The position numbers were made by a program, and so were the translations under genes. A DNA stretch of 64,000 bases from the NCBI GenBank assembly GCA_043716765.1, contig JAYSYA010000274.1, forward strand, positions 3,082 through 67,081. Reading direction: 5' to 3'. The notes below the pieces were generated by a model. That model saw only the letters and a list, made by a program, of their open reading frames with translations, was not told the origin of the DNA and did not search any database. Positions 1-22,368 of this stretch are shown one piece after another (the stretch's first letter is position 1; every line of letters starts with the position of its first letter). The DNA is from Akkermansiaceae bacterium (GTDB taxonomy: Bacteria; Verrucomicrobiota; Verrucomicrobiia; Verrucomicrobiales; Akkermansiaceae).

Positions 1-1
1 G

Positions 2-180
2 CCCGCCACCAGCCCACTCCTGTCCCTTCTGGCTCTCGCCGCCTCTTGCTGCGCGTCTCTCCGAGCCGCCACTCCGAACATCATTCATCCTATGATGAGC
101 ACCTTCGCGCCCGGATGGTCGTGTGGACCGGGCTTGCGGACCGGAACCGGAAGGAAAGACCCCACGGATCGCGTCCGTAG
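2..180 (+). pseudogene. Possible internally deleted sulfatase-like remnant (signal peptide + PNII joined to a C-terminal helix)
   Basis: Frame from nt 2 reads ...LLSLLALAASCCASLRAATPNII, like a signal peptide plus the PNII start of secreted sulfatases. From nt 91 another frame reads YDEHLRARMVVW...* (TAG 178-180). Runs off the window edge. Confidence 0.25.
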
Positions 181-213
181 ATTCCCGGTTCAATCCAACC
201 CATCACCAAACAC

Positions 214-1641
214 ATGAAATTTATCCCCACAGGCTCGCGGTTCGCCGTATCGATGCCCCGCCGCGCGTTCGTCAAGAGCGCCCTCACCGCCGGAACCGCC
301 GCGATCCTGGCACCCCGCCTGGCCCTCGGCGCGAAGGCCGCCGCCGGCGAAAAAGTCAACCTCGCCTGCTGCGGCATCGGCAACCGTGGTGCGGAAATCA
401 TCAAGGAACTGCACCAAACCGGCCTCGCTAACATCGTCGCGCTGTGTGACACCGACATGGGTGCGCCGCACACGCAGGCCATCCTCAAGCTGTTTCCCGA
501 CGTCCCGCGTTTCCAGGATTTCCGCCAGATGTTCGACAAAATGGGCAAGGACATCGAAGCCGTTAGCGTGGGCACGCCGGACTTCTCACATTTCCCCATC
601 ACGATGCTCGCGATGTCGCAAGGCAAGCACGTGTATTGCGAGAAGCCGATGGGCCAGAGCTACCGGGAAATCCAGTTGATGATGGACGCCGAGACCAAAT
701 ACAAGGTCGTCGCGCAAATGGGCAACCAAGGCCACTCGGACGCCAACTATTTCCAGTTCAAGGCATGGGTGGACGCGGGCATCATTAAGGACGTCACCAA
801 AATCACCGCTTTCATGAACAACCCGCGGCGCTGGCACGGCATGAAGGTTTCGGACTTCCTGCCCAAGCAGCCCGTCCCCGACACCCTGGATTGGGACACC
901 TGGTTGGCGACGGCGCAGTTTCACGAATATAACAAGGGATACATTAACGGCGAGTGGCGCTCGTGGTATGACTTCGGCAACGGCGCTTTAGGCGACTGGG
1001 GCGCGCACATCTTCGACACCGCCCATCAGTTTCTCAATCTCGGCATGCCCACAGAGGTGGACCCGGTGATGCTGGAAGGCCACAGCCCGTTCATTTTCCC
1101 GCAGGCATCCACGCTCGCCTTCCGCTTCCCCGCGCGCGGCTCGATGCCGCCGCTGGAACTCACGTGGTATGACGGCACGAAAAACCTGCCGTCTCTGCCC
1201 GAAAACATCGGCGCGGCCGTCGTCGACAGCGACATCCCGCCGCCATCGACCGGCAAGGTGGAAACCAAGGCGCGGCCACCCGGCAAGGTCATCTACGGCG
1301 GAGATCTCACCTTCAAGGGCGGTTCCCACGGCAGCACCCTACAGATCCTCGGCCCCAAGGCCGCTGAAATGAAGTCCAGCCTGCCGGAAGTCCCGCGAAG
1401 CCCGTCCAATCACTTCAAGAATTTCCTGCTCGCCTGCAAGGGCCAGGAAACCTGCCGCTCATCGTTCGCGGTGGCCGGTCCGCTCTGCCAAGCAATGGCG
1501 CTGGGAGTCCTCGCCCAGCGGGTGAATGCCAAGCTGACCTTCGATCCCGTTTCCAAACAGATCACGAACCACAAGGTCGCCAACGAGCTGCTAGCCGGCG
1601 CTCCGCCGCGCAAGGAATGGGAGCAGTTCTTCAGCCTCTAA
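214..1641 (+). CDS. Gfo/Idh/MocA family oxidoreductase with Tat signal
   Basis: RRAFVK Tat motif; VNLACCGIGNRG Rossmann start; VGTPDFSHF; YCEKPM; LGDWGAHIFD. Confidence 0.9.
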   Translation: MKFIPTGSRFAVSMPRRAFVKSALTAGTAAILAPRLALGAKAAAGEKVNLACCGIGNRGAEIIKELHQTGLANIVALCDTDMGAPHTQAILKLFPDVPRFQDFRQMFDKMGKDIEAVSVGTPDFSHFPITMLAMSQGKHVYCEKPMGQSYREIQLMMDAETKYKVVAQMGNQGHSDANYFQFKAWVDAGIIKDVTKITAFMNNPRRWHGMKVSDFLPKQPVPDTLDWDTWLATAQFHEYNKGYINGEWRSWYDFGNGALGDWGAHIFDTAHQFLNLGMPTEVDPVMLEGHSPFIFPQASTLAFRFPARGSMPPLELTWYDGTKNLPSLPENIGAAVVDSDIPPPSTGKVETKARPPGKVIYGGDLTFKGGSHGSTLQILGPKAAEMKSSLPEVPRSPSNHFKNFLLACKGQETCRSSFAVAGPLCQAMALGVLAQRVNAKLTFDPVSKQITNHKVANELLAGAPPRKEWEQFFSL

Positions 1642-1717
1642 TCCGCGCCCCGAGCCTGAGACAATTTCCCGGTAGTTGGCTCTTTCCGCAATGCGGGACA
1701 GCCTGTTAACTCCGCGC

Positions 1718-2398
1718 ATGGCAGCCACTCCCCTCACCCGCACCTGTTCCGCGATCCTCGTGGCGGCGGGAGTGAGCCGACGGATGGGCTTCGACAAGCT
1801 CGCCTCGCCGCTGGCCGGAGTGCCGGTCTTGCGGCGGACGCTTGACGCGTTTCTAGCAGCGGAGTCCATCGCGGAGGTGGTGGTCGTTTGTCCCGCGGAA
1901 CGCTGGGAACTGCTAGACGGTGGTGAATTCTCCAAACCGGTCAGGCGGGTGGACGGCGGCGCGGACCGGCAGGATTCCGTGGTGGCCGGGCTTGCCGCCC
2001 TATCAGATGAAACGGACCTCGTCGCAGTGCATGACGCCGCGCGCCCCTTGGTTTCACCCGCGGACATCGATCGCTGTGTGGCGGCGGCACTTGAATTCCG
2101 CGCGGCCGCCCTCGCACGCCTCGTGACCGAGACCTTGAAGCGCTCCGACGCGGCGGACTTCAGCGCGGGCGCGGTTTCGCGGGAAAATCTCTGGTTCATG
2201 GAAACCCCGCAGGTTTTTGAAATCCCGCTGCTGTTGGAAGCCTACGAGGCGGTGGCGGCGCAAGGCCTGGCGGTGACCGATGAAGTCTCGGCCATGGAAG
2301 CAATCGGCGTTCAGGTCAAATTCATCGAGTCGATCCAGCCGAATTTGAAAATCACCACGCCCGCGGATCTCGCGCTGGCAGAAGCACTTTTACGATGA
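1718..2398 (+). CDS. ispD: 2-C-methyl-D-erythritol 4-phosphate cytidylyltransferase
   Basis: AAGVSRRMGFDK, RQDSV, VHDAARP, ETPQVF, NLKITTPADL motifs. ATG at 1718 chosen over the upstream GTG. Confidence 0.92.
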   Translation: MAATPLTRTCSAILVAAGVSRRMGFDKLASPLAGVPVLRRTLDAFLAAESIAEVVVVCPAERWELLDGGEFSKPVRRVDGGADRQDSVVAGLAALSDETDLVAVHDAARPLVSPADIDRCVAAALEFRAAALARLVTETLKRSDAADFSAGAVSRENLWFMETPQVFEIPLLLEAYEAVAAQGLAVTDEVSAMEAIGVQVKFIESIQPNLKITTPADLALAEALLR

Positions 2399-3639
2399 GC
2401 AAGGCAATCTACGAATGGCAGCAAATCCCCGGCGGCCCGCGTCTAGCAGTCGCGACGGTGACAGACTCCGAGTGCGCGGCGCTCTCGATTTACATCCCCG
2501 CAGGCAGCCGCGATGAATGGAATTTACCGGCCGGTCTCGCGCACTTCGTCGAGCACATGGTTTTCAAGGGCACCGCCCGCCGCAGCGCGCGCGAGCTGAG
2601 TTTTGAAATTGAAAACGCCGGCGGACAACTCAACGCCTGCACCTCCGAAGACCAAACGGTTTACGAAGGCCACGGTGAGGCGGACCTGATGCCGCTATTG
2701 GCCGACGTTCTCTCCGACATGGTCTGGCACGCGACGTTTCCCGAGCCGGAAATCGGCTTGGAGCGCGAGGTCATCAGCGAGGAAATCACGATGTATCGCG
2801 AAGCGCCGGCGGATCACATCGGCGATCTCATTTCGAGCGCCTTGTGGGGCGGCCACCCGCTGGGCAACGCGATTTCCGGCTCGCTGGAATCAATCGCGAT
2901 GATCGACCGGGAAATTCTAATGGATTTCCGCAACCGCCACCATTTCCGCAACGACGTGGTCATCGCCGCAGCCGGCCCGTTTACTCTGGACGAGGTGCTG
3001 GCGATGGTTTCACCGCACTTGCCGAAGGAATTCCACGCGCCGCACAAAGCGGTTCCGTTCGACCGGACAAAGGTGGTCCCGCAGACGATCGCGGAGGCGC
3101 GGGAAACCGACCAGCTCCAGCTCGCCCTCGCCTGGCACACGCCCGGGCGGCTCTCGGAATCCCGCCACGCACTGCGAATGCTGAGTATGATGTTAGGAGA
3201 AACCGCGAGCTCGCGACTGTTTCTCGAACTGCGCGAGGAACGCGGGCTCTGCTACCAGATCAGCAGCGACGTGACGTTCTTCGACGAGACCGGAGCCTTC
3301 GAAATCAGCGCCGGACTCGACCCGGAATCGCGTGAGGAAGCACTCGCCTGCATCCGCCGCGAAATCGACGACCTCGTCGCTAACGGCCCGCGCCCCGGCG
3401 AGCTAGACCGCGCGAAGCGCCTCACCATCGCCCTGAGCAAGCTCGCCTTCGAGACGACCAGTTCCCACGCCGGCTGGGCGGGCGAAGGCCTGCTCGACTT
3501 CGGCCACATCCCCGCGCCCCTGGACTGGCGGGCCAAGGTCATGGCGGTGACGGACGCGGACGTGCAAGCCATCGCCTGCGAAGTTTTTCTCGGCCGCGAA
3601 CCGGCAATGGCCGAGATCGGCGGACTGGAATCCGATTGA
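2395..3639 (+). CDS. M16 family zinc peptidase (pitrilysin-like)
   Basis: Inverted zinc motif HFVEH, GGQLNACT, SSRLFLELREERGLCY. Overlaps the ispD stop (ATGA). Confidence 0.9.
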   Translation: MSKAIYEWQQIPGGPRLAVATVTDSECAALSIYIPAGSRDEWNLPAGLAHFVEHMVFKGTARRSARELSFEIENAGGQLNACTSEDQTVYEGHGEADLMPLLADVLSDMVWHATFPEPEIGLEREVISEEITMYREAPADHIGDLISSALWGGHPLGNAISGSLESIAMIDREILMDFRNRHHFRNDVVIAAAGPFTLDEVLAMVSPHLPKEFHAPHKAVPFDRTKVVPQTIAEARETDQLQLALAWHTPGRLSESRHALRMLSMMLGETASSRLFLELREERGLCYQISSDVTFFDETGAFEISAGLDPESREEALACIRREIDDLVANGPRPGELDRAKRLTIALSKLAFETTSSHAGWAGEGLLDFGHIPAPLDWRAKVMAVTDADVQAIACEVFLGREPAMAEIGGLESD

Positions 3640-3649
3640 TAGAAAAATC

Positions 3650-4336
3650 ATGCCGCATCCCTTCCACCCGTTCACGCAAGAACACTTCGTCGCGCTCGGC
3701 ATCGGCGTGGCCGCGACGGCGGCGTTTCTTATCGCCGGCAAGCGCGGGGGCAACGGCCGTTACCTGGCGACCGCGCTGCTGGCCTTCCTTAACTTGAGCG
3801 CCTATCCGCTCGGCCAGGCAGCGTGGCTTTCATTAGACGCGCCGAAATCGATCGACAACATTCTGCCGCTGCACCTCTGCGACATCGCCGCGATCACGGC
3901 CGGCTTCGCCTTGATCACCAAGCGCCCGCTGCTCTGCGCGCTGACGTATTTCTGGGGGCTTGCAGCGACCTTGCAGGCACTTATCACGCCGGCCATCACC
4001 GTGGGATTCCCGCATCCGCCCTTCGTAATGTTTTTCATCCACCACTTCGCGGTGGTGACCGCCGCGCTCTATCTGCCACTGGTGGAAGGCTGGCGGCCGG
4101 CGCAACCGGTTTGGAAAAGCCCACTTGTCATCTCCGCCTGGTCGCTCGGCTACCTCGGCATGGCCATGGCCGTAAACAGCGTGTTAGGCAGCAATTTCGG
4201 CTTCGCTTGCCGCCCACCGGACAACCCCAGCCTGATCGACCATCTCGGCCCGTGGCCTTGGTATCTGTGCTCGATAATCGGGATCGCGCTGCTGTTCTAT
4301 TTCCTGCTGGCGCTGCCGTTCGCAAAACGGAAGTGA
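3650..4336 (+). CDS. Integral membrane protein, YwaF/TIGR02206-like
   Basis: Multiple TM segments; LPLHLCD, FFIHH, LGPWPWY motifs. Confidence 0.8.
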   Translation: MPHPFHPFTQEHFVALGIGVAATAAFLIAGKRGGNGRYLATALLAFLNLSAYPLGQAAWLSLDAPKSIDNILPLHLCDIAAITAGFALITKRPLLCALTYFWGLAATLQALITPAITVGFPHPPFVMFFIHHFAVVTAALYLPLVEGWRPAQPVWKSPLVISAWSLGYLGMAMAVNSVLGSNFGFACRPPDNPSLIDHLGPWPWYLCSIIGIALLFYFLLALPFAKRK

Positions 4337-4343
4337 GGTTCTG

Positions 4344-5690
4344 TCAGACGGGCCGGTCGTGCATTGAATTACGCCAGAAATCCAAACGCTCCCGGATGCG
4401 TTTCTCCATGCCCTGGTCGCCGGGCTGATAGTAAATTTTCCCCTCCGGCAAATAAGCCTGCGGAATGTAGGCACCCTCGTAATCGTGGGCGTAAAGATAC
4501 CGCATCGACTCCTCGGGCTCGCCGGACGCCGCAGCGATTTTCTTGCGGGTGTTCGTCCGTAAATGCACCGGCACGGCGAGCGTGCGGCCGTTTTCCACGT
4601 CATCCATCGCCCGGCCCAGCGCGGCGTAAGCGGTGTTGGATTTCGGCGCGGTCGCCAGATAGACCGTGGCCTGCGCCAGCGGAATCCGGCCCTCCGGCAT
4701 GCCGATGAATTCGAACGCCGCGTGCGCGTCCATCGCCACCCGCAGGGCGTTGGAATCCGCCAAACCGATGTCCTCCGAGGCGGAAATCACTAACCGCCGC
4801 AAGATGAAGCGCGGATCCTCGCCGGCGTGCAGCATTTTCGCCAGCCAGTAGAGCGCGGCATCCGGATCGGAACCGCGGATCGACTTGATGAAGGCGGAAA
4901 TCGTGTCGTGGTGCGCGTCGCCGTGGGCATCGTAAACCACCGCCTTGCGCTGGATGGATTCCTCCGCCACCGCCAAGGTCAGGTGGACCGAGCCATCGTC
5001 ATCGGGAGTGGTCAAAACCGCCAGCTCCAGCGCGCTCAACGCCTTTCTAACGTCACCATCGGATTTCTCTGACAAGTGCCGCAACGCGGCGGGATCGGCG
5101 ACCACTTGATATCCGCCTAGGCCGCGCTCCACGTCGGATAGAGCCCGCTCAAGGACACCGACCACGTCAGCCACCGGCACCGGCTCGAGCTGGAAAATTT
5201 GCGACCGCGAGACCAACGGCGAGTTCACGTGGAAATACGGATTGTGCGTCGTCGCGCCGATGAATCTAACGATTCCGCGCTCGATGTGCGGCAGCAGCAC
5301 GTCCTGCTGGGCTTTGTTGAAACGGTGGATCTCGTCGATGAAAAGGATGGTGGTCTCGCCACGCAAGTCGCGCCAGGTCCGCGCTTGGTCGATCTTCGCC
5401 CGGATCTCCGCGACGTTAGATTCCACGCCGTTGAGCGATTCAAAACGCGAGCCGGTCGTCCGCGCGATCACGCTGGCAAGCGTGGTTTTACCGGTCCCGG
5501 GCGGCCCGTAGAAAATCAGCGAGGTAAAGCGGTCCGACTCGATCGCCCGCCGCAGCAATTTCCCGGGAGCGAGAATATGTTGCTGCCCGGCCACCTCTTC
5601 CAGCGAGCGCGGCCGCATCCGCGCTGCCAGCGGCTCGGCGGGATTCGGCTTGTCAGTTAGGGCGGCGGGAGTGGTGAAAAGGTCGGACAC
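4344..5690 (-). CDS. rarA: Replication-associated recombination protein A (AAA+ ATPase)
   Basis: PLAARMRPRSL, GPPGTGKT, FIDEIHRFNKAQQD, SAFIKSIRGSDPDA, YAHDY. Start probably GTG at 5690 (VSDLF). Confidence 0.93.
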   Translation of the reverse strand: MSDLFTTPAALTDKPNPAEPLAARMRPRSLEEVAGQQHILAPGKLLRRAIESDRFTSLIFYGPPGTGKTTLASVIARTTGSRFESLNGVESNVAEIRAKIDQARTWRDLRGETTILFIDEIHRFNKAQQDVLLPHIERGIVRFIGATTHNPYFHVNSPLVSRSQIFQLEPVPVADVVGVLERALSDVERGLGGYQVVADPAALRHLSEKSDGDVRKALSALELAVLTTPDDDGSVHLTLAVAEESIQRKAVVYDAHGDAHHDTISAFIKSIRGSDPDAALYWLAKMLHAGEDPRFILRRLVISASEDIGLADSNALRVAMDAHAAFEFIGMPEGRIPLAQATVYLATAPKSNTAYAALGRAMDDVENGRTLAVPVHLRTNTRKKIAAASGEPEESMRYLYAHDYEGAYIPQAYLPEGKIYYQPGDQGMEKRIRERLDFWRNSMHDRPV

Positions 5691-5996
5691 AGCGGATTTC
5701 CCGCACCATCGCCGCAGCACGCCCGCCATTCCAGTCGATATTCCTTGCTGCAATTGCGAGATTTCCAACTTTCCTTAATCTTAAACCCCGATTGCGCCGC
5801 TTATGGCCGATTTTGAGACCAGTTGGCCGATTTAGGGACAATTTAATGCTTTCGTTATCCTGAATTTCAGGCAATTTGAATGCGTTCAGAGGCGCTTCGG
5901 TGCCAAAGAGCTCTCAGCCGAGAAGCCGAGTCCACACAAGTTCGTTTTTGATTTCCGGGGGGACGTCAACCGAGCAGGGCAACGCCGAGTGGCTCT

Positions 5997-6048
5997 GAAA
6001 AAAAGCGCGCGTTGCGAAATCCGGGGGGATATCCAACGCGCGCTTTTC
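5997..6048 (-). terminator. Intrinsic terminator downstream of the S41 peptidase gene
   Basis: Perfect 14-bp inverted repeat AAAAGCGCGCGTTG (6001-6014) / CAACGCGCGCTTTT (6034-6047), with a T-run after the stem on the minus strand, 20 nt past the stop. Confidence 0.7.
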
Positions 6049-6067
6049 TGTTATCCCGTGGCGTCGG

Positions 6068-7294
6068 TCACCGTCCGCCGGCGTGAACCGCAGCCAACGC
6101 CCGGATCGCCGCGACCATCACGGGATCTTCCCAAGCCGCGATTTTCTCCCGTTCGGCGGGTGCGAGCGCGTCGCTCTGGCAGCGCTTGACGAAATTCGCG
6201 CGGCCCGGGTCGTCGATGACCACCGTGACATCAGGCGTGATCCCCAGGCGGTGCGGCGTGTTTCCCGATGGCGTGTGATAAGTGGCGATGGTGAGCCGCA
6301 ACGCCGTGCCGCCGCCCATCGGAATGATGTTCTGCACCGAACCCTTGCCGTAGCTGACCTCGCCGACGACGGTGGCGCGCTTTAAATCCTGAAGTGCGCC
6401 GGCGGTCAGTTCCGAGGCGGAGGCGGACATCCGGTTGAGGAGGACGACCACTGGATAGTCGCGTTTCCGGCGTTGGCGGTCCGGGGTTTTCAGCGGTTCC
6501 GCCGCCTCACCTTCCCGGCCGCGGGTGGTGACCACGGCGGTGTTAGGCGGCAGAAAAAGCCCGAGAATCTTCACGGTTTCGTTCAAATCACCGCCGCCGT
6601 TATCGCGGAGATCGAAGACCAGCGATTTCATGCCGCTGTCTTCGAGCTCGTCGAGGGCAGCTTCCATTTCACGGGCGCAGCCACTGCCGAAAGTCGCCAG
6701 GCGGACGTAGCCGAGCCCGCTTTCCGGGTGCCAGATTTTCGACTCGGCGACCGAGCGCTGTTCCACCACGCGATGAACGAGCGCCACCTCGAACGGTTGC
6801 GGCGCGGCCGGCGACTTGAGCAACAGCCGGCTGGTCTCGCCCGCGGCGCGGCGCAGCGGTCCGAGCAACTCGGAGAAATCCGCGCCCTGGGTTTTCCGCC
6901 CGTCGATTTCCAACAGCCGCGAGCCGGGTAAAACGCCGGCAAGCGCCGCCGCGCCCAACGGGAAAACCGCAGCGATGTAGGGTCCGTCATCGCGCAATCC
7001 CAAGCTGATCCCGAGCGACGGCACCTCCGGATTGAGAGCTTGGTTTTCCTGCATTTGCCGGGCCATCTCCGGGTGGATGAACGACGAATGCGGATCGAGG
7101 CTGGCAAGCAGCCCTTCGAGCGCATGGTTGACGAGCCGGTCGTAAGCCAGACGGTCCGCATCCGGGTGGCGCTTGCGGACCGCCTCCAATACTTCGACGA
7201 AACGCTCGATCGCCGGGTAAGCCGCTTCGTCGGGATCAGGCGGCGCGGCGAAAGCGACCGAACTGATCCCGCAAAGCAAACAAACGAGTTTCAT
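6068..7294 (-). CDS. S41 family carboxyl-terminal processing protease (PDZ + peptidase)
   Basis: Signal peptide MKLVCLL; LDPHS; PDZ; DLRDNGGG; SASASE; GKGSVQ; YHTPSG. Start set at ATG 7294. Confidence 0.9.
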   Translation of the reverse strand: MKLVCLLCGISSVAFAAPPDPDEAAYPAIERFVEVLEAVRKRHPDADRLAYDRLVNHALEGLLASLDPHSSFIHPEMARQMQENQALNPEVPSLGISLGLRDDGPYIAAVFPLGAAALAGVLPGSRLLEIDGRKTQGADFSELLGPLRRAAGETSRLLLKSPAAPQPFEVALVHRVVEQRSVAESKIWHPESGLGYVRLATFGSGCAREMEAALDELEDSGMKSLVFDLRDNGGGDLNETVKILGLFLPPNTAVVTTRGREGEAAEPLKTPDRQRRKRDYPVVVLLNRMSASASELTAGALQDLKRATVVGEVSYGKGSVQNIIPMGGGTALRLTIATYHTPSGNTPHRLGITPDVTVVIDDPGRANFVKRCQSDALAPAEREKIAAWEDPVMVAAIRALAAVHAGGR

Positions 7295-7630
7295 CGCCGC
7301 AGAGGTAACATTTGCGGCTGCGGGCGATAGAGAAAAATGATCGGCCGCCCCCACGGATTTTTAAAATAATTTCGGTTGCGGGGAGGCGGGCGCGGGGTAG
7401 TCTCCCAACGACTGCTGTGTACGACTATTTTGGTAGCTGGCCCGAACCGATATGATTGAACCGGGGTCATCTTCCGATGGACGATGTCACGCCTTTTCAG
7501 GAAGACGGAAACCCATTGGACGACCCCACTTATTGAGTTTACGGAACGTGGCTCACAGCGCCAAGGACGGCACAGCGGTTTTCTTTTTTCATGGCTTGAT
7601 TTTACTCGGCTCTGCATGGTCTCGCGCGTG

Positions 7631-8407
7631 ATGCGATTTGCAGTGCTGGGCAGCGGGAGCGGAGGAAATGCGGCGGTCGTCGAGTGCGGCGGGCTGCGGC
7701 TGATGATCGATGCGGGATTGAGCGCGAAGCAGCTGTCGCTGCGACTCCAACAGGTAGGGATCGACCCCGCGTCGCTGGACGGGATTTTACTGACCCACGA
7801 GCACGGCGACCACGTCCGCGGGCTGAAGGTTTTTCTCAAACAGAACCCGGTGCCAGTGTTCACCACGCCGGCCACGGCGAGAGTGGTTCGGGAGGGCGGG
7901 ATCGAAGGCGGGACGTGGAAATTTTTCGAAGCGGGCCAAGTGTTCGCCATCGGCGGCATCGCGGTGGAGACCTTCGCGATTCAGCATGACGCGGTGGATC
8001 CGGTGGGTTTTGTGATCGGGCATGACACGCGGCGGCTGGGATTTCTATCCGACGCGGGATTCGTCACCCGCAGCATGACCGAACGCCTGCGCGGGCTGGA
8101 CGGGCTTTTCGTGGAGGCCAACTACGACGAAGGCCTGCTAGAAGCAGATATCAAGCGCCCGTGGTCGATCAAACAGCGGATCAGTTCGCGGCACGGCCAT
8201 TTGTCGAACGGCCAAGTCACCGAGTTGATCCGCGACATCGCCCACCCGGCGCTCGGGCGGGTGGTGCTCGGCCATTTGAGCTCGGACTGCAACACGCCGG
8301 ACACCATTCTATCAATGCTCCGGAGTTGTTTGGCGGATCTCGGTCACGGCCACATCGGCTTGCACTGCGCAGGCCAGCATGAGCCGACGGATTGGTTCGG
8401 ATTTTAA
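7631..8407 (+). CDS. MBL-fold metallo-hydrolase, YycJ/WalJ-like
   Basis: LGSGSGGNA, THEHGDH, HDAVDP, EANYD, GHLSN, LGHLS motifs. Confidence 0.88.
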   Translation: MRFAVLGSGSGGNAAVVECGGLRLMIDAGLSAKQLSLRLQQVGIDPASLDGILLTHEHGDHVRGLKVFLKQNPVPVFTTPATARVVREGGIEGGTWKFFEAGQVFAIGGIAVETFAIQHDAVDPVGFVIGHDTRRLGFLSDAGFVTRSMTERLRGLDGLFVEANYDEGLLEADIKRPWSIKQRISSRHGHLSNGQVTELIRDIAHPALGRVVLGHLSSDCNTPDTILSMLRSCLADLGHGHIGLHCAGQHEPTDWFGF

Positions 8408-15610: not shown

Positions 15611-15730
15611 TCAATCCAAGAACTTCCCGGGATTCAAGATGCCGTTCGGATCGAACGCGTTCCTGAGCGCGCGGTGGGAAGGAGTCATCGCCGAGCGCAT
15701 GGCGGATCCAGGGCTTTTTGGCGAGGCCCA
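15611..15730 (-). pseudogene. 3' fragment of an FAD-linked oxidase (GlcD/FAD-oxidase_C type), frameshifted
   Basis: [18 protein letters not shown], then in another frame [21 protein letters not shown]. DPxGILNPGK is the family's hallmark C-terminus. Confidence 0.75.
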
Positions 15731-15732
15731 CC

Positions 15733-16117
15733 CTATCAGGTGGCTAAGCCCGGCGCATCAAGCTCGTCTCCGAACTCACTCAAGGCCGCGCTCATCCAGC
15801 CCAATTTCTATCTGATCGAAGAAGCCACCGTCGGCCTCCACCTCGAAGACGTCCAGCGCCTCATCGACGTCCTCCACCACCTCGTCGATGAGGGCCACAC
15901 CGTGGTCGTCATCGAGCACCACATGGCCGTCGCCGCCGAAGCTGACTGGATCCTCGACCTCGGCCCCTAAGCCGGCGACGGCGGCGGCCAGATCATCGCC
16001 CAAGGCCCGCCTGAAAAAATTGTGAAGTCCAAGACCTCCCGCACCGCGCCGTTTCTCAGGAAATCCTTAGGGAATTGGAGTTTCCCGCGATTTCCCAGCT
16101 TCAGCACGCTGAAATAA
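15733..16117 (+). pseudogene. uvrA: 3' fragment of a UvrA-type ABC ATPase with two nonsense codons and a frameshift
   Basis: [15 protein letters not shown] (TAA 15745), frame change, then [38 protein letters not shown]...[33 protein letters not shown] (TAA 15968). Confidence 0.85.
15985..16058 (+). repeat. uvrA 3'-end direct repeat, copy 1
   Basis: 74 bp, 65/74 identical to 17329-17402 by manual alignment. Confidence 0.9.
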
Positions 16118-16125
16118 GAAGGATC

Positions 16126-16177
16126 ATATTTTAAGTTCGGCTTTTAACTTGAAATATAAAAATCCATATTTCAAGTT
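16126..16177. promoter_or_regulatory. Palindromic operator-like site upstream of fic
   Basis: AACTTGAAATAT (16146-16157) N8 ATATTTCAAGTT (16166-16177) is a perfect 12-bp inverted repeat. An extra half-site ATATTTTAAGTT lies at 16126-16137. It ends 6 nt before the start codon. Confidence 0.6.
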
Positions 16178-16183
16178 TCTGCT

Positions 16184-17317
16184 GTGAACATCGAGGCATT
16201 CAAAGCAGGTCATCTGACCAAGCAATTCAAGTATTCCAGTTTTCAGCCGGAGACCATCAATCGGCAGTGGACTTGGCTGGATCCTGAGGTGAATGGACTG
16301 CTTTCCGAAGCAAATCGCTGGCTTGGCGAGCTGAACGCCTTCGGGAAAATCCTTCCTGACGTGGACACTTACATCCGGATGCACGCACTCAAAGAAGCCA
16401 ATGCGTCCAGCCGGATCGAAGGAACCCAGACGCGGATGGAAACCGCTGCCCGACCCATCGAGCAGGTAGAGCCGGAAAAGCGTGACGACTGGCAGGAGGT
16501 TCATCGCTATCTGGAAGCGATGGATCATGCCCTCGAAGGTTTGGGAAAGCTGCCGCTATCGAACCGGCTGCTTTGCCAGACCCACGCCATTCTGCTCGCG
16601 GGTGGACGGGGCGAAACAAAATCCCCCGGCGAGTTCCGCAGGAGCCAAAACTGGATCGGCGGATCCAGCCTCACCGACGCGGTGTTCATCCCTCCCCATC
16701 ACGACGATCTTCCCGCGCTCCTCACGGATCTTGAATCCTTCTGGCACAATGACGACATCCGGGTGCCCCACCTCATCCGGATCGCCATCAGCCACTATCA
16801 ATTCGAAACCATCCACCCGTTCCTTGATGGCAACGGGCGGATTGGCCGGCTGTTGATCACCCTTTATCTGATGGACAAGGAATTGCTGGTGAAGCCCTGC
16901 CTCTATCTATCCGATTTCCTCGAACGCCATCGGGACAGCTACTACGACGCCCTCACCGCCGTCCGCACCCGTAACGATCTGTTACACTGGGTTCGCTTTT
17001 TTCTGAGCGCTGTCCTTGAAACCGCGAAGGGTGCCGTGGCGACTTTCCGAAGCATCATGGAGCTGAAACAAGAGCTGGACGCGAAAATTCTTGGCTTGGG
17101 TCGCAGATCCGAAACCGGGACGCGTTTGCTCCAATACCTTTATATCAATCCTTATGTCGATGTGCCGGAAGTAACCAAGGCTCTCGGTATTTCTCCCGCC
17201 ACCGCCAACGCCTTGCTCGCCGAGTTTCTAAGGCTCGACATTCTAACTGAGCTTACCGGCTACCGGCGCAACCGCATCTTCCATTTCCACGCCTATTTCA
17301 AGCTTTTCCAGTCCTGA
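16184..17317 (+). CDS. Fic family protein (class II-like, C-terminal wHTH)
   Basis: Canonical HPFLDGNGRIGR; N-terminal inhibitory-type SSRIEG motif; PGEFRRSQNWIG; C-terminal HTH-like region ending GYRRNRIF. Confidence 0.92.
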   Translation: MNIEAFKAGHLTKQFKYSSFQPETINRQWTWLDPEVNGLLSEANRWLGELNAFGKILPDVDTYIRMHALKEANASSRIEGTQTRMETAARPIEQVEPEKRDDWQEVHRYLEAMDHALEGLGKLPLSNRLLCQTHAILLAGGRGETKSPGEFRRSQNWIGGSSLTDAVFIPPHHDDLPALLTDLESFWHNDDIRVPHLIRIAISHYQFETIHPFLDGNGRIGRLLITLYLMDKELLVKPCLYLSDFLERHRDSYYDALTAVRTRNDLLHWVRFFLSAVLETAKGAVATFRSIMELKQELDAKILGLGRRSETGTRLLQYLYINPYVDVPEVTKALGISPATANALLAEFLRLDILTELTGYRRNRIFHFHAYFKLFQS

Positions 17318-17328
17318 CCCGAAGACTA

Positions 17329-17402
17329 CGGCCAAATCATCGCCCAAGGCCCACCAGAGAAAATCGCCAGGTCCAAAACCTCCCGCACCGCGCCGTTTCT
17401 CA
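17329..17402 (+). repeat. uvrA 3'-end direct repeat, copy 2
   Basis: Encodes GQIIAQGPPEKIARSKTSRTAPFL, starts 11 nt after the fic stop, and reads on to TGA at 17420-17422. Confidence 0.9.
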
Positions 17403-17583
17403 AGATTGCTTTACGGCTTTGAAAAATGGACCGCGAGATTCTTCTCGCCCGAGGCCAACTGGAAGCGCGAAATTCATTCCGCGCGGAATTCTACGCATGC
17501 CTTTTCCCTCGCCATTCCCAGCCGGCGTTCACAACCTCCCGCAGCCTCCGGATCACCTGAGCCTCGCTAAAGCTTTCCCTGAA

Positions 17584-17775
17584 ATGTCCGTCCACTCGTC
17601 CCTCCAAAGCATCGGGAAACTCGAATCCGATCTCTGGGAAGCCGCGGACAACCTCCGCAGAATCGCTGAATGCAATTTCCTCCAACGCGAAACCCTCGCC
17701 CTCCAAAATCAAAGACTCCGCGCCGCGCGCGACCTGCTGCTGCCGAAGCCGATGAGCGGGGTGATCGAAGTTTGA
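17584..17775 (+). pseudogene. In-frame deletion scar: type I R-M HsdM N-terminus fused to HsdS C-terminus (63 aa)
   Basis: MSVHSSLQSIGKLESDLWEAADNLR (HsdM start motif LW.AAD.LR) joined at about 17659 to ...QNQRLRAARDLLLPKPMSGVIEV* (HsdS end motif RDLLLPKLMSGE). Confidence 0.8.
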
Positions 17776-18912: not shown

Positions 18913-20364
18913 TCAGGAGGAAAGCCAGTAACAGGCGAGCGGAGCGGGGATGGCGAGGATCTTCGCGTTCAGCAACTCGCGTTCGCGGCCTTGCTTGGCC
19001 GAAGGAACATCGAACAGGCCGAAGTCCTCCCAACGCCGGGAAATGATGTAGCCGTGCTCGACCTTTTGGTTTTCGAGAAACAAGCGCAGGCCTTTGAACT
19101 TCCCGAGATCGAGCGGGCTATCCTGGTATTTTACCTCGAAAGGTACCAGGCGGTCGCCGATTTCAGCGATCAAATCCACTTCCAAATCCTTGTTAGCCTT
19201 GTCCCGCCAATAGGTGAAAACCGGTTGGTCCTCGTAGTAGCGGGTGAAGACGTGTTTGAAAAAAGCCGTCTCCACCGCGGCTCCCAGCCGGTCGGGCCGC
19301 TCCAACAGTTTCCGGCCGAGCAACAGCACCGACCCGGGCAGCGCGGCGTCCGCCAGATAGATTTTAGGCTTTCCGCGCAGGATCTCCTTGCCATAGCCGT
19401 GCGGGCGGAGCCGATAGATCAGGTGGGTGGACTCGAATAGATCGAGGAAGTTGTTCACCGAGTTCCGGTTCACGCCGTCCAGCTCGCGGGAAAGCGCGGC
19501 AACGTCGAGGATGCCGCCATCGTGGTAGCACAAATAGAGGAAAATCTTCTCCACCTCCAGCACCCGGCGCACGCCGTAGAGCGCGGTCATGTCGCGCTTC
19601 AACACCTTGTCCACGATGTCCTCGCGCAGCAGCCGCTGGCAGCGCGTTAGATCAGAAACGCTGGCCGGTTCCGGGAATCCGCCGCGCAGGAGGTAGTCAT
19701 GGAAATGCGGAGTCAGCGACTTCGCCTGGGCTGCCGTGCGGGCGAAGTCGCCGGGGCTCCAGTCGAAACACTGTTTCAGTGACTTCACCATCGGCACCGG
19801 GCCGGGATCGATCCCGCGCAGTTTGAGAAACTCCCCGAAGGAAAGCGTAGCCAGCGGCAATGTCTGCCAACGTCCGACCCCGGATTCCGCCTGCGCGGCA
19901 TGAAGCGGGCTGGCCGAGCCCGTCACCACGATCCGCCGCCCGCGCTTGAAATCGACCTGGTGCTTCAGCCACGTCTGCCACTCCGAGACATACTGGATTT
20001 CATCGAGAAACAGCCATTGCGGCTGCCCTGCGGTGGGCGGGAAAAGCTCTTCCCATGCCGCCAAGGTGCGCTCCAGCCCGGCGAGCTTTAGAATGGGATG
20101 GTCGAAAGTGGCGTAGAGGATGTTTCCGGTGGGCGGGCCATTTCCCACCAGATTGCGGATCGCTTGGCGCAGCAAGGTGGTTTTCCCGGTCTGCCGCGCT
20201 CCGCTCAGAACGAGCGCCCGGCGCGATTCCGTGTCGTTGATCCACGCCCGGATCGGCACGCTCGCCGATCGTTCCCAATCCGGCAGGTCGGATACGGGCA
20301 GCCCGGTCCACCAAGGATTGAACTCCTGGAGGACGGCGAAAAGTTCGGCTTTGGGCAGTTCCAT
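18913..20364 (-). CDS. AAA_14 ATPase with DUF4143 / PD-(D/E)XK-like C-terminus
   Basis: GARQTGKTT, LFLDEIQY, VTGSAS, RGGFPE, PKIYLADAAL, GAAVETAFF, EVDL...FEVKY. Confidence 0.9.
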   Translation of the reverse strand: MELPKAELFAVLQEFNPWWTGLPVSDLPDWERSASVPIRAWINDTESRRALVLSGARQTGKTTLLRQAIRNLVGNGPPTGNILYATFDHPILKLAGLERTLAAWEELFPPTAGQPQWLFLDEIQYVSEWQTWLKHQVDFKRGRRIVVTGSASPLHAAQAESGVGRWQTLPLATLSFGEFLKLRGIDPGPVPMVKSLKQCFDWSPGDFARTAAQAKSLTPHFHDYLLRGGFPEPASVSDLTRCQRLLREDIVDKVLKRDMTALYGVRRVLEVEKIFLYLCYHDGGILDVAALSRELDGVNRNSVNNFLDLFESTHLIYRLRPHGYGKEILRGKPKIYLADAALPGSVLLLGRKLLERPDRLGAAVETAFFKHVFTRYYEDQPVFTYWRDKANKDLEVDLIAEIGDRLVPFEVKYQDSPLDLGKFKGLRLFLENQKVEHGYIISRRWEDFGLFDVPSAKQGRERELLNAKILAIPAPLACYWLSS

Positions 20365-20422: not shown

Positions 20423-21042
20423 TTACGAAAAAACCCGTCTCAACGCGGCGGCCGGGAGGGACTTGATGGCTTTCAACTCGGCGCGCGCCGCGGTGAGGAT
20501 TTCCGTGGCGGCGGTGAGGCGGGCGTCGAGTTGCATAGTGAGATTGTCCTGCTGCTTGCGGCTCGGAAGGCAGACGTGAAACTCCCGTGCAGCGGGCATG
20601 TAAATGGTTTGATGGATCGCGCCGGACGACTTGGTTTCCATGTAGGCCTTCGATGCGCGCAGGGCCTGCATGAGGAAACGAGGTGCCAGATCGCTGCCGC
20701 AGATCCAGTTGAAGAAATGCTGACGGTGGCCATCGGTCGGCCTGCCCATGATTGTTGTGAAGCCGACTTGAACATCACGGCCGAAGACGACGGTGTCTTT
20801 GGGGAGAATGCGGGCGGACGAATTCTTAATTCCCAGAGGATTGGTGTAGCCTTTGGTCTCCATCGCCACCTTTGCCGTCGATGGCGCGGATGTCGGGGAA
20901 GGAAACCCAGGGAATTTCGCCGCCCCAACCCGGTTGGCGGCGGCTGGGGGTGTGACCGGATTTGAGACCGGCCTGGGTGGCAAGCCGCTGCCACGACCCA
21001 CCCGCCGAGCCGCAATCAATCCATCGTGTTTTTCCCGCTCAT
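20423..21042 (-). pseudogene. hsdS: Type I R-M specificity subunit remnant (single TRD, frameshift near 20870)
   Basis: KSGHTPSRRQPGWGGEIPWVSFPDIRAIDGK, +1 frameshift, then VAMETKGYTNPLGIKNSSARILPKDTV...LPSRKQQ...KSLPAAALRRVFS*. ATG 21042 overlaps the TGA of the duplicated hsdR end; most of the first TRD is missing. Confidence 0.78.
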
Positions 21043-21048
21043 GCGGCT

Positions 21049-21077
21049 AACAACCTCCGTTTGGTTTCCATGACGAG
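21049..21077 (-). repeat. hsdR 3'-end direct repeat, copy A
   Basis: AACAACCTCCGTTTGGTTTCCATGACGAG (29 bp) is identical to 21947-21975; weaker similarity extends about 25 bp further. The minus strand reads LVMETKRRL. Confidence 0.92.
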
Positions 21078-21116
21078 CCAGGCGGGATTGGCGGAGGCTT
21101 TGGCCGGATGGTTTTC

Positions 21117-21551
21117 TCATACCGCTTTAAGGAGTTGGAGGTCGGGGAGTGAATAGGATTTGAAGCCTGCATCGAAGGTAACGAAGGCAAGGTCCGCGGT
21201 TTTCGCCCAAGCGGCGAGATAGGCGTCCATCCAAAGCTTGGGCGAGGCCGTGCGCCCGGCGATGTGTTGCCGCCATGCCCCGTCGAGCCCGGCGGGTTCC
21301 ATGGGCAGGTAGGCGGTGCGGATGTCACCGACGAGTTTTTCCCAAACGTGCCAGGCATCGTCGGGGGTGTGTGTGTCGTCCCCCATGACGCTGCGGTTGA
21401 TGAGCAGGCGGAGGACGGTTTGCTGGAGCGGCCGGCACCAGCAGCAGGTTGCGGCAGGGCGCTCGCTCCACCAGTCAATGGCTGCGGCGTGATGTTGGTG
21501 GCTCTCGACGAGGATGGGCAGCCAGACGTTGGCGTCAACGAGGGCGGGCAT
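21117..21551 (-). CDS. vapC: VapC-type PIN domain toxin (TIGR00028-like)
   Basis: MPALVDANVWL, SHQHHAAA..WW, LWMDAYLAA, FVTFDAGF acidic PIN residues. Confidence 0.88.
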   Translation of the reverse strand: MPALVDANVWLPILVESHQHHAAAIDWWSERPAATCCWCRPLQQTVLRLLINRSVMGDDTHTPDDAWHVWEKLVGDIRTAYLPMEPAGLDGAWRQHIAGRTASPKLWMDAYLAAWAKTADLAFVTFDAGFKSYSLPDLQLLKAV

Positions 21552-21882
21552 GGGCGGCGAGTTCTTCTTGATCCATTTCCTCAAGCGCTTGCTCGACGGC
21601 TGCGGCGGGGATTTGCGGTGCTCCTTTTCTGGCTGGGATCAGCGGACCGCTGAGGCGGTAGCCCTGTGGGTAAGCCATACGCAGGCTCTCGGCGTCCCGA
21701 TGGCGGCTCAGTTGGGCCGGGGTAACGACCGGGATTTCGGCAGTGGTCCGCGAGCTACCACCCTCATCAAGCCATTTCTGAAAAAGATCCGCAGCCACCT
21801 CGCGGATGCGCCGCCCTTCTTCGGCCGTGCGGGCCTTGACCCGCCGGTAAAGGTCGTCCGGAATGTCGATGGTTGCCTTCAT
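21535..21882 (-). CDS. Ribbon-helix-helix antitoxin (VapB-like)
   Basis: MKATIDIPDDLYRRVKARTAEEG RHH start. Lies immediately upstream of the PIN gene and overlaps it. Confidence 0.82.
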   Translation of the reverse strand: MKATIDIPDDLYRRVKARTAEEGRRIREVAADLFQKWLDEGGSSRTTAEIPVVTPAQLSRHRDAESLRMAYPQGYRLSGPLIPARKGAPQIPAAAVEQALEEMDQEELAAHARPR

Positions 21883-21936: not shown

Positions 21937-22368
21937 TCAGGCGACGAACAACCTCCGTTTGGTTTCCATGACGAGTTGGGCGGGATGGCCGTGAGCCTGG
22001 AGGGCGGCGAGGCCGCCGGCGCGTTTGACGGCGGGGACGTCGAAGAGATCGGGGAATTCCAGGCCCGACGAGGGCGAGCAGCACGCCTTCGGTGGTGTTT
22101 CCGAAACCGGCGAGCCAGGCGGCATTAGCGGCGGCGAAGGCTTCCACGCGGTGGAGGCGGGCGCGGCGAGCTTTACCTTGTAGTCGGCCACTGAGACGGG
22201 CATCGCCTTGCCATCGACCTCGGCGACGAACGAGATGCCGCCATCGAGGATTTCCACGGTGACGCCACGGGCCTCGACTTTGATCGGGACGGGATTTCCA
22301 CCGCCTTCTTCCTCACTATCAGACGCGGGCGTTTTTCTCCGGGTGGCCATCCTTGACCGCGGCGGCAT
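21937..22368 (-). pseudogene. hsdR: Type I R-M restriction subunit C-terminal remnant with internal deletions and frameshifts
   Basis: IKVEARGV...VDGKAMPVSVADYKVKLAA / RVEAFAAANAAWLAGF / GLEFPDLFDVPAVKRAGGLAALQAHGHPAQLVMETKRRLFVA*, spread over two frames. Matches recalled EcoEI-type HsdR C-termini. Confidence 0.65.
21947..21975 (-). repeat. hsdR 3'-end direct repeat, copy B
   Basis: Exact 29-bp match to 21049-21077. Confidence 0.92.

Follow-up and report, generated by a model that had tools for sequence, protein, structure and literature searches.

A SoFic-type fic gene between two diverged uvrA 3′ ends, at a core-gene end that recurrently precedes defence genes in an Akkermansiaceae genus

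How defence genes enter genomic hotspots without an integrase or a transposase is an open question. In Streptococcus thermophilus, the cis-mobilisable elements (CIMEs) have att sites on both sides and descend from integrative elements that sit at the fda 3′ end. For restriction-modification (RM) units, an "insertion with long target duplication" is on record (Nobusato et al., 2000, cited by Furuta, Abe and Kobayashi, 2010, Nucleic Acids Research (NAR) 38:2428, PMC2853133); in the account given in the later paper the mechanism was left open and a property of the RM genes, such as DNA breakage, was suspected, and the units were screened for as direct repeats of more than 30 bp, single in an insert-free relative, around an insert of less than 20 kb without mobility genes and with both restriction and modification genes. 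In Escherichia coli, 56 of 60 recombinants obtained with circularised DNA of partial homology had a duplicated homologous locus; sequencing of 14 of them put the length of the duplication at 109-950 bp (PMC3240628). Here, we describe a 64,000-nt stretch of DNA from an Akkermansiaceae bacterium (GCA_043716765.1, contig JAYSYA010000274.1; the whole stretch is referred to as the window), in which a SoFic-type fic gene is bracketed by two diverged copies of the 3′ end of the core gene uvrA, and we propose that the fic unit was inserted behind uvrA by host homologous recombination anchored in uvrA itself. The same uvrA end is a genus-wide hotspot for defence genes.

The window corresponds to positions 3082-67081 of the 84-kb contig C195 (G000:C195:3082-67081) in the metagenome-assembled genome (MAG) G000, which consists of 336 contigs and 3.4 Mb with an estimated contamination of 2.7%. 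The comparison set comprised 209 genomes of the same genus, the closest relative being G067 with about 90% nucleotide identity.

A repeat search over 15.0-18.5 kb of the window returned one long direct repeat, 15976-16077 versus 17320-17421, of 102 nt with 79% identity and a spacing of 1344 nt, whose core of 77 nt aligned at 87% identity (E = 4e-20) in a BLAST search of the region against the whole assembly. The initial annotation had noted a 74-bp repeat with 9 mismatches, several of them synonymous, which is present and in fact longer, reaching the uvrA stop codon; this stop is a TGA at 17420-17422 in the downstream copy (copy 2) and has become TGG by mutation at 16076-16078 in the upstream copy (copy 1). 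Over a core of 24 codons (15986-16057 versus 17330-17401), the 9 nucleotide differences fall in 8 codons and lead to 6 synonymous and 2 replacement changes (V/A and K/R). Copy 2 ends in ...ARSKTSRTAPFLKIALRL followed by the stop codon and is of the type ARSK..KIALRL-stop, as in the intact uvrA of the genome, which lies on contig C65 and encodes at least 1292 aa. Compared to this intact gene, copy 2 differs in 10 codons synonymously and in 2 by replacement, and was therefore coding sequence until recently. The synonymous pattern and the differing types of the two tails fit the earlier suggestion of two uvrA alleles as opposed to a fresh target duplication, but the upstream copy, which had been taken for the end of a functional uvrA, belongs to a pseudogene fragment. 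The possibility that copy 2 is part of another, unrelated gene was discarded, as the uvrA tail with its natural stop codon is followed by native uvrA-downstream sequence when compared to the relative G080. We also observed that the uvrA tail of copy 2 is in frame with fic, with only the fic TGA in between (17315-17422), and read-through would add 34 residues to the Fic protein; because this frame is not kept in G160, a second species carrying the cassette, it is probably due to chance.

Empty sites were found in two relatives. In G080, uvrA is followed by an intact type I RM operon (hsdM, 736 aa; hsdS, 410 aa; hsdR, 1128 aa), and the uvrA end runs directly into hsdM; window positions 17329-17658 align to this junction with 72.8% identity, and 17688-17775 match the 3′ end of the G080 hsdS. 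The type I operon has thus been cut down in the window to an HsdM-N/HsdS-C fusion at 17584-17775. In G067, a single uvrA end is followed after about 100 nt by sequence corresponding to the window from 21122 onward. Given these two layouts, the native position of uvrA is here, and 8.4-21.1 kb of the window is an island of defence genes and wreckage.

The same cassette was searched for at the DNA level in the comparison set. This fic (at least 78% nucleotide identity) occurs in just 4 of the 209 genomes, namely G000, G160, G144 and G138, and the copy in the window is the only intact one. In G160, a uvrA end is followed by the same region upstream of fic, including the putative operator described below, by a fic with an internal deletion of 859 nt and by a second uvrA tail; the junction between fic and tail is common to G160 (TGA TTTGAGGACATGGCAGGTCATCGCC) and to the window (TGA CCCGAAGACTACGGCCAAATCATCGCC), and the left junction agrees as well. 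In G144, uvrA is intact and continues through the same intergenic sequence to the fic promoter, which is fused to the last 56 codons. In G138, uvrA is likewise intact (1300 aligned residues), and 94 nt of fic are left beyond the same intergenic sequence. The fic remnants of these two genomes are 78-91% identical at the nucleotide level. A decayed uvrA tail may also be present behind the G144 remnant, but its score is reached by 12 of 500 shuffles and is suggestive only. The adjacency of uvrA and this fic family in three further genomes agrees with the initial annotation of a Fic cassette recombined in at a uvrA end; the cassette measures about 1.24 kb. Among the 92 best Fic homologue loci from other genomes and other phyla, none has uvrA beside fic, so that the uvrA tail does not belong to a mobile unit that Fic genes generally share.

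The Fic protein has an N-terminal helix with the inhibitory motif SSRIEG, a Fic core with HPFLDGNGRIGR and, at the C terminus, a winged-helix domain. It matches the Pfam families Fic_N (4.8e-22) and Fic (4.5e-18), and the PADLOC profile PDLC03963 for SoFic with E = 1.7e-114, residues 16-376 covering profile positions 5-359 of 361; the solved SoFic structures 9tcl, 3eqx and 3zcn match residues 43-365, including the C-terminal domain, with E of about 1e-36 (phmmer). Both the HxFx(D/E)GNGRxxR and the (S/T)xxxE(G/N) motifs are present, and align to HPFIDGNGRTGR and SSEIEN of SoFic, respectively. The intact catalytic motif that had been read from the DNA is found within a complete ORF (open reading frame) of 377 aa, and the profile and structure matches place the protein with the SoFic type. 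Full-length homologues with 52-66% identity are spread over many phyla. On these matches we classify the protein as a new, distant member of the SoFic type, which most likely works like SoFic, that is as a dimeric, auto-inhibited AMP-transferase. Sofic has been described as a toxic single-protein anti-phage system, with a 47-aa downstream antitoxin, AS1, in the E. coli version (strain H397; PMC12249575), and dimeric SoFic binds the 100-bp stretch that precedes the start codon of its own gene (bioRxiv 10.64898/2026.07.09.737422). In the window, three 12-mers precede the fic start codon, direct at 16126, inverted at 16146 and direct at 16166, exactly 20 nt apart; this putative operator is kept in the decayed cassettes of G160, G138 and G144. 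Triplets of motifs of about 12 nt in the same direct-inverted-direct arrangement were also observed upstream of fic homologues from several phyla (L013, L084, L091, L070, L076, L092 and L024), where they end 10-25 nt before the start codon and the motif sequence varies between homologues, as if operator sequence and winged-helix specificity co-varied. The Fic protein would repress its own promoter through the winged-helix domain and, once triggered, would AMPylate EF-Tu and stop translation, in a predicted abortive infection.

For duplicated uvrA ends, we counted matches to a strict tail pattern (the codons for K-x-S-R-T-A-P-F), for which the reversed pattern used as control gave 1 match. The pattern was found in 113 of the 209 genomes, with at least two matches in 9 of them: G000 (3), G008 (3), G160, G112, G018, G100, G175, G022 and G206. 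Diverged second copies in G139, G023, G021, G096 and G147 were added by BLAST. Overall, a second uvrA 3′ fragment is present in at least 14 of the 209 genomes, in at least 11 of which it lies behind another cargo (Table 1). The displaced fragments are 21, 27, 31-38, 73, 74, 91 or 214 codons long and are always distal to the cargo. In five genomes (G139, G023, G018, G022 and G100) the uvrA end nearest to the displaced copy is that of its own genome (rank 1 of 24), which argues that some of these brackets are independent, true target duplications; the duplication in G022, of 348 nt with 97.7% identity between the copies, is true and recent. No match to the tyrosine recombinase family PF00589 was found anywhere on contig C195, and no recombinase family was found among the annotated cargo ORFs of G018, G022, G096, G021, G139, G175, G112, G206 and G023. 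In G008, which carries no cargo, each of the tandem units directly behind uvrA (G008:C2:3660600-3661110, L144) was observed to consist of the last 21 uvrA codons and a long REP-like hairpin.

Table 1. Features around the fic gene in the window, and cargo between uvrA and the displaced uvrA 3′ fragment in other genomes of the genus.
Genome	Feature	Position in window	Strand	Basis or remark
G000 (window)	Hhe-like DUF4011 helicase-nuclease, 2044 aa	9437..15571	-	Pfam DUF4011, AAA_11/12, MTES_1575
G000 (window)	3′ fragment of a glcD-like FAD-linked oxidase gene, about 40 codons, frameshifted	15611..15731	-	78% identical to the 3′ end of an ORF on contig C246
G000 (window)	Dead uvrA 3′ fragment, about 116 codons (about 125 uvrA codon positions)	15732..16078	+	Translations; alignment to the C65 uvrA
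G000 (window)	Repeat copy 1	15976..16077	+	Last ~33 codons of the dead uvrA fragment; tail type FLR..LG, G160-like
G000 (window)	Putative Fic operator	16126..16177	+	Three 12-mers ATATTT(T/C)AAGTT; ends 6 nt before GTG
G000 (window)	SoFic-type class II Fic gene, 377 aa, GTG start, intact	16184..17317	+	Pfam, PADLOC, solved structures
G000 (window)	Repeat copy 2	17320..17422	+	Displaced uvrA tail, last ~31-34 codons; natural TGA 17420-17422
G000 (window)	Native uvrA-downstream sequence (hairpin, hsdM leader) into the HsdM-N/HsdS-C fusion remnant	17423..17775	+	G080 alignment
G096, G206	PDC-S24-type Fic			Cargo from uvrA to fragment
G139	PIN toxin			Cargo
G023	Gene pair, 171 + 57 aa			Cargo
G175	AAA_16 ATPase			Cargo
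G112	DUF4143 ATPase			Cargo; 95% protein identity to window 18913-20364
G018	9-kb island: Type ISP enzyme, PLD-helicase, YhcG nuclease, DUF3800			Cargo
G022, G021	Unknown proteins			Cargo
G008	Three tandem 158-nt units			No cargo

From these end products we infer the following route and order of events. A unit of 1.24 kb, made of the operator and the SoFic-type Fic gene, would have been inserted just behind uvrA, and approximately the final 100-115 nt of that gene would have been duplicated. A dedicated recombinase would not have been involved, and most likely host homologous recombination acted with the conserved uvrA 3′ end as the sole homology. This could have occurred either (a) by a Campbell-type single crossover of circularised DNA carrying a partial uvrA 3′ end along with the cargo, or (b) by a one-sided, homology-facilitated illegitimate replacement, with the homologous end in uvrA and the illegitimate end inside the uvrA 3′ region; homology-facilitated illegitimate recombination was reportedly described by de Vries and Wackernagel in 2002. 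Either route would yield, in this order, a uvrA whose 3′ end is of donor type, the cargo, the displaced tail of the recipient, of variable length, and the native downstream DNA. The tail types of the two copies in the window, G160-like in copy 1 and like the own uvrA in copy 2, fit this prediction of a donor type proximal and a recipient type distal to the cargo, and therefore support the existence of two alleles. The same insertion event or its descendant would be present in G160, and in decayed form in G144 and G138. In G000, a later event of the same kind would have pushed the former uvrA end of about 116 codons off the gene, after which this end would have decayed and fic would have stayed intact; such a displacement would explain the position of the dead uvrA end behind another cargo, with the working uvrA now elsewhere. 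Since the cargos found at uvrA include genes other than RM genes, we argue for a general route and not for one specific to RM units. We give this account as a whole, recombinase-free insertion of the fic unit behind uvrA by host recombination, a probability of roughly 0.6, and the initial annotation is, in its overall interpretation, partly supported.

The conserved tail might instead have been duplicated before any cargo arrived, uvrA tail and hairpin being doubled in tandem by slippage or unequal crossing-over and genes being inserted or swapped into the spacer later. We regard this as unlikely. The three tandem, cargo-free units of 158 nt in G008, a near-complete assembly of 2 contigs, document that such arrays exist, and an ordinary double crossover could exchange cargo between the copies, which would explain the similar tail boundaries of G000, G139 and G018. 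However, the unit of G008 has another start point, codon -21, and extends over about 95 nt of downstream hairpin, whereas copy 1 in the window is without the hairpin past about 15-20 nt; a unit as short as this does not give rise to the fragments found in G021, G096 and G022, which span 73-214 codons; and every cargo would still require an insertion step of its own, left unexplained.

Site-specific integration has a still smaller place among the explanations and appears quite improbable to us. Here the bracketed genes would be non-autonomous, CIME-like elements with the uvrA 3′ end as attB, moved by a tyrosine or serine recombinase acting in trans, from elsewhere or from a lost parent island. 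Integrative islands are classically recognised by a direct repeat where a conserved gene ends (3′), and tyrosine recombinases are encoded on other contigs of the genome; the recombinase is nevertheless absent from the 84-kb contig and from the annotated ORFs of the bracketed cargos, the one of 9 kb included. Displaced fragments that range from 21 to 214 codons indicate no single crossover point, although three of the displaced tails (G018, G139 and G000) start within about 35 nt of each other, and this clustering leaves a fixed point some small probability. Moreover, no shared sequence was detected among the cargo-side junctions of the different cargos, and the 348-nt duplication of G022 goes far beyond an att core. 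Finally, a chimeric assembly of two strains with different uvrA alleles, which the 336 contigs and the estimated contamination of the MAG and the position of the intact uvrA on a separate short contig might suggest, is very improbable, because an independent Logan contig (run SRR23617193) is 100% identical to window 16029-17407 and covers both fic junctions, which are therefore not the artefact of one assembler, because both this structure and its junction between fic and tail recur in G160, another species, and because analogous brackets are present in at least 12 further genomes, some of them near-complete assemblies.

Several observations weigh against insertion by host recombination of a SoFic-like unit. 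Copy 2 is 85% identical to the own uvrA at the nucleotide level and no nearer to it than to the alleles of other species (85-87%), and because overall identity does not single out the own allele, the assignment of donor and recipient rests on few characters in less than 100 nt. The recombination route is itself read from end products. The start points of the three clustered tails, at LGPEAG in G018, at AGDG in G139 and at (PE)..GGQ in G000, would be equally compatible with a specific site, or with a single ancestral scaffold in which the cargo was swapped later. Regarding the cargo, the Fic protein reaches 167.3 bits against the NCBIfam SoFic equivalog NF046030, whose cut-off is 550, and is not an equivalog; no AS1-like antitoxin ORF was found downstream of fic, where the uvrA tail and the hsdM leader lie and where the only small ORFs, of 44-54 aa (17406-17570), belong to the hsdM 5′ leader, the 44-aa one having no Pfam match. 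Finally, the link between the C65 uvrA and the window cannot be established, because C65 enters a repeat 95 nt past the uvrA stop codon in a MAG of 336 contigs, and mis-binning of C65 is possible. We tried to join C65 to the window and rejected the join, as the contig ends in this multi-copy repeat and nothing connects it to C195. The repeat (G000:C65:3977-4151), of at least 100-175 nt, was also observed at the ends of C124, C204 and C246, and is probably an insertion sequence or another dispersed repeat that breaks the assembly. As further observations on uvrA, the gene is unusually long in the genus, its product measuring 1292 to about 1500 aa and containing several ABC segments that are paralogous to one another, and C253 carries another uvrA-like gene, which is more distant (39% identity).

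The dead uvrA fragment upstream of fic carries four lesions: a TAA at 15745-15747, at the place of Glu in LSGGE, the ABC signature; a deletion of 29 nt that shifts the frame; a second TAA at 15968-15970; and the loss of the stop codon described above. With gaps left out, it is 89-91% identical to the uvrA alleles of the genus. We had considered this copy as foreign on the basis of 82% identity to the own uvrA, and dropped this reading when the figure turned out to be distorted by gap columns, the identity outside the gaps being 89%, within the interspecies range. A forced global alignment had also suggested uvrA homology upstream of 15732; this was rejected, since 15611-15731 is the 3′ end of the glcD-like gene on the opposite strand. 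The glcD-like and uvrA fragments abut head to head at about 15731, both truncated at the 5′ end. An intact glcD-like paralogue, an ORF of 474 aa, is present at G000:C246:9430-10854, and the orthologous glcD-like 3′ ends of G077, G067 and G144 sit at other loci. The Hhe-like gene matches the NCBIfam models Hhe_antiphage, with 1451 bits and thus below the cut-off of 2000, and ProA, and has no match in G067, G077, G144, G160 and G138. The glcD-like 3′ fragment and the Hhe-like gene follow each other on one strand, a layout of core-gene 3′ end plus defence gene that is the same as that of the uvrA fragment and fic.

On the other side of the locus, a DUF4143/AAA_14 ATPase gene (window 18913-20364, minus strand; PADLOC PDC-S01) was observed whose protein is 95% identical to the ATPase bracketed in G112 (L147, G112:C137:106-1557); since the uvrA ends of G000 and G112 are about 81% identical at the nucleotide level, this gene seems to have moved recently between lineages. 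Further downstream, a 55-nt direct repeat (85% identity, spacing 898), 21039-21093 versus 21937-21991, brackets a PIN-domain gene on the minus strand (21117-21584). Rfam, promoter and terminator scans of 15.4-17.9 kb gave nothing informative. The flanks of the island, 1-8407 and 21122-64000, are in inverted relative order compared to G067 contigs C23 and C114, and G067:C23 can be followed from window 8407 via contig C23 of G000 and then, in reverse, into C195 from its right end. The alignments of these fragmented contigs would fit an inversion or another rearrangement relative to G067 with one breakpoint near 8407, at the island, which complicates the reading of the left side.

Going beyond insertion by host recombination in the single case, the units bracketed by uvrA tails may form a recombinase-free cassette system, in which recombination between the repeats would free a circle of cargo and one tail, and, after transfer, a single RecA crossover in the conserved uvrA 3′ end would bring it into any related genome. 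We put this forward tentatively, and consider it possible but doubtful. If it were true, a core-gene end would be a portable attachment site for Fic, toxin-antitoxin, ATPase and restriction cargos genus-wide; arrivals would push earlier uvrA ends outward, and the stack of about 116 and then about 33 codons would record successive acquisitions; and the glcD-like 3′ fragment before the Hhe-like gene and the hsdR-end repeat around vapBC would come from the same process with other anchors. The clues that survive at uvrA, namely the empty site, the junction shared across species, the variable duplication lengths and the donor and recipient allele signatures, together with unrelated cargos in a genus of 209 species, argue for a general route by host recombination and against one peculiar to RM genes, and this hotspot is a concrete system for testing it.

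The comparison with known systems starts from the cargo. The Fic protein shares with SoFic of Shewanella oneidensis and E. coli (PDB 3eqx, 3zcn and 9tcl; PMC12249575) the three-part architecture and the catalytic and N-terminal inhibitory motifs, and has an AT-rich repeat array less than 60 nt from the start codon, in the region of its promoter that SoFic itself occupies; unlike SoFic, it is distant in sequence (E of about 1e-36), scores below the equivalog (167 versus 550 bits) and has no AS1-like small gene downstream.

Compared to the insertions with long target duplication (PMC2853133), the locus has a short unit free of mobility genes and long, variable direct repeats, and several of the published repeats likewise overlap the 3′ end of an upstream gene. 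Measured against the screen of Furuta et al., the repeat, of 102 nt (79% identity) including a core of 77 nt (87%), exceeds 30 bp, the uvrA end is single in G067 and the site is empty in G080 (72.8% identity across 17329-17658), and the insert of about 1.24 kb has fic as sole ORF of note, C195 being free of PF00589 matches; a Fic gene, and not a pair of R and M genes, makes up the cargo, so that we see here the same phenomenon with a cargo class outside that screen. Differently from the published cases, the cargos at uvrA include, besides a restriction island, Fic and PIN toxins, ATPases and unknown proteins, one core-gene end is reused across the genus and displaced ends appear stacked, and the copies in the window are 13-21% diverged with different allele signatures. 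The laboratory work on single-crossover integration (Amarir-Bouhram et al., 2011, PLoS One, PMC3240628) found one-sided homology to be enough and gave duplications of 109-950 bp, with size and topology as at uvrA, but with plasmids or marker DNA, whereas the uvrA events are known from natural end products.

The CIMEs resemble the uvrA units in having recombinase-less cargo that direct repeats enclose where a housekeeping gene has its 3′ end, and in tandem accretion. Their repeats are short, fixed att cores that belong to a known integrase family, whereas the uvrA repeats vary tenfold in length, and neither a cognate recombinase nor a fixed crossover core was found at uvrA. The core-gene-flanked defence hotspots of E. 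coli (PMC10121019) and Pseudomonas aeruginosa (PMC10250203) are, according to their abstracts, likewise made of variable defence genes between conserved core genes, often with no recognisable mobile-element genes; displaced fragments of the flanking gene, the hallmark at uvrA, are not mentioned in these abstracts. What is new here is that, throughout a genus, such insertions are found again and again at the end of one core gene and with cargos other than RM genes, and the displaced uvrA fragments would, compared to other core-gene hotspots, give a record of successive acquisitions.

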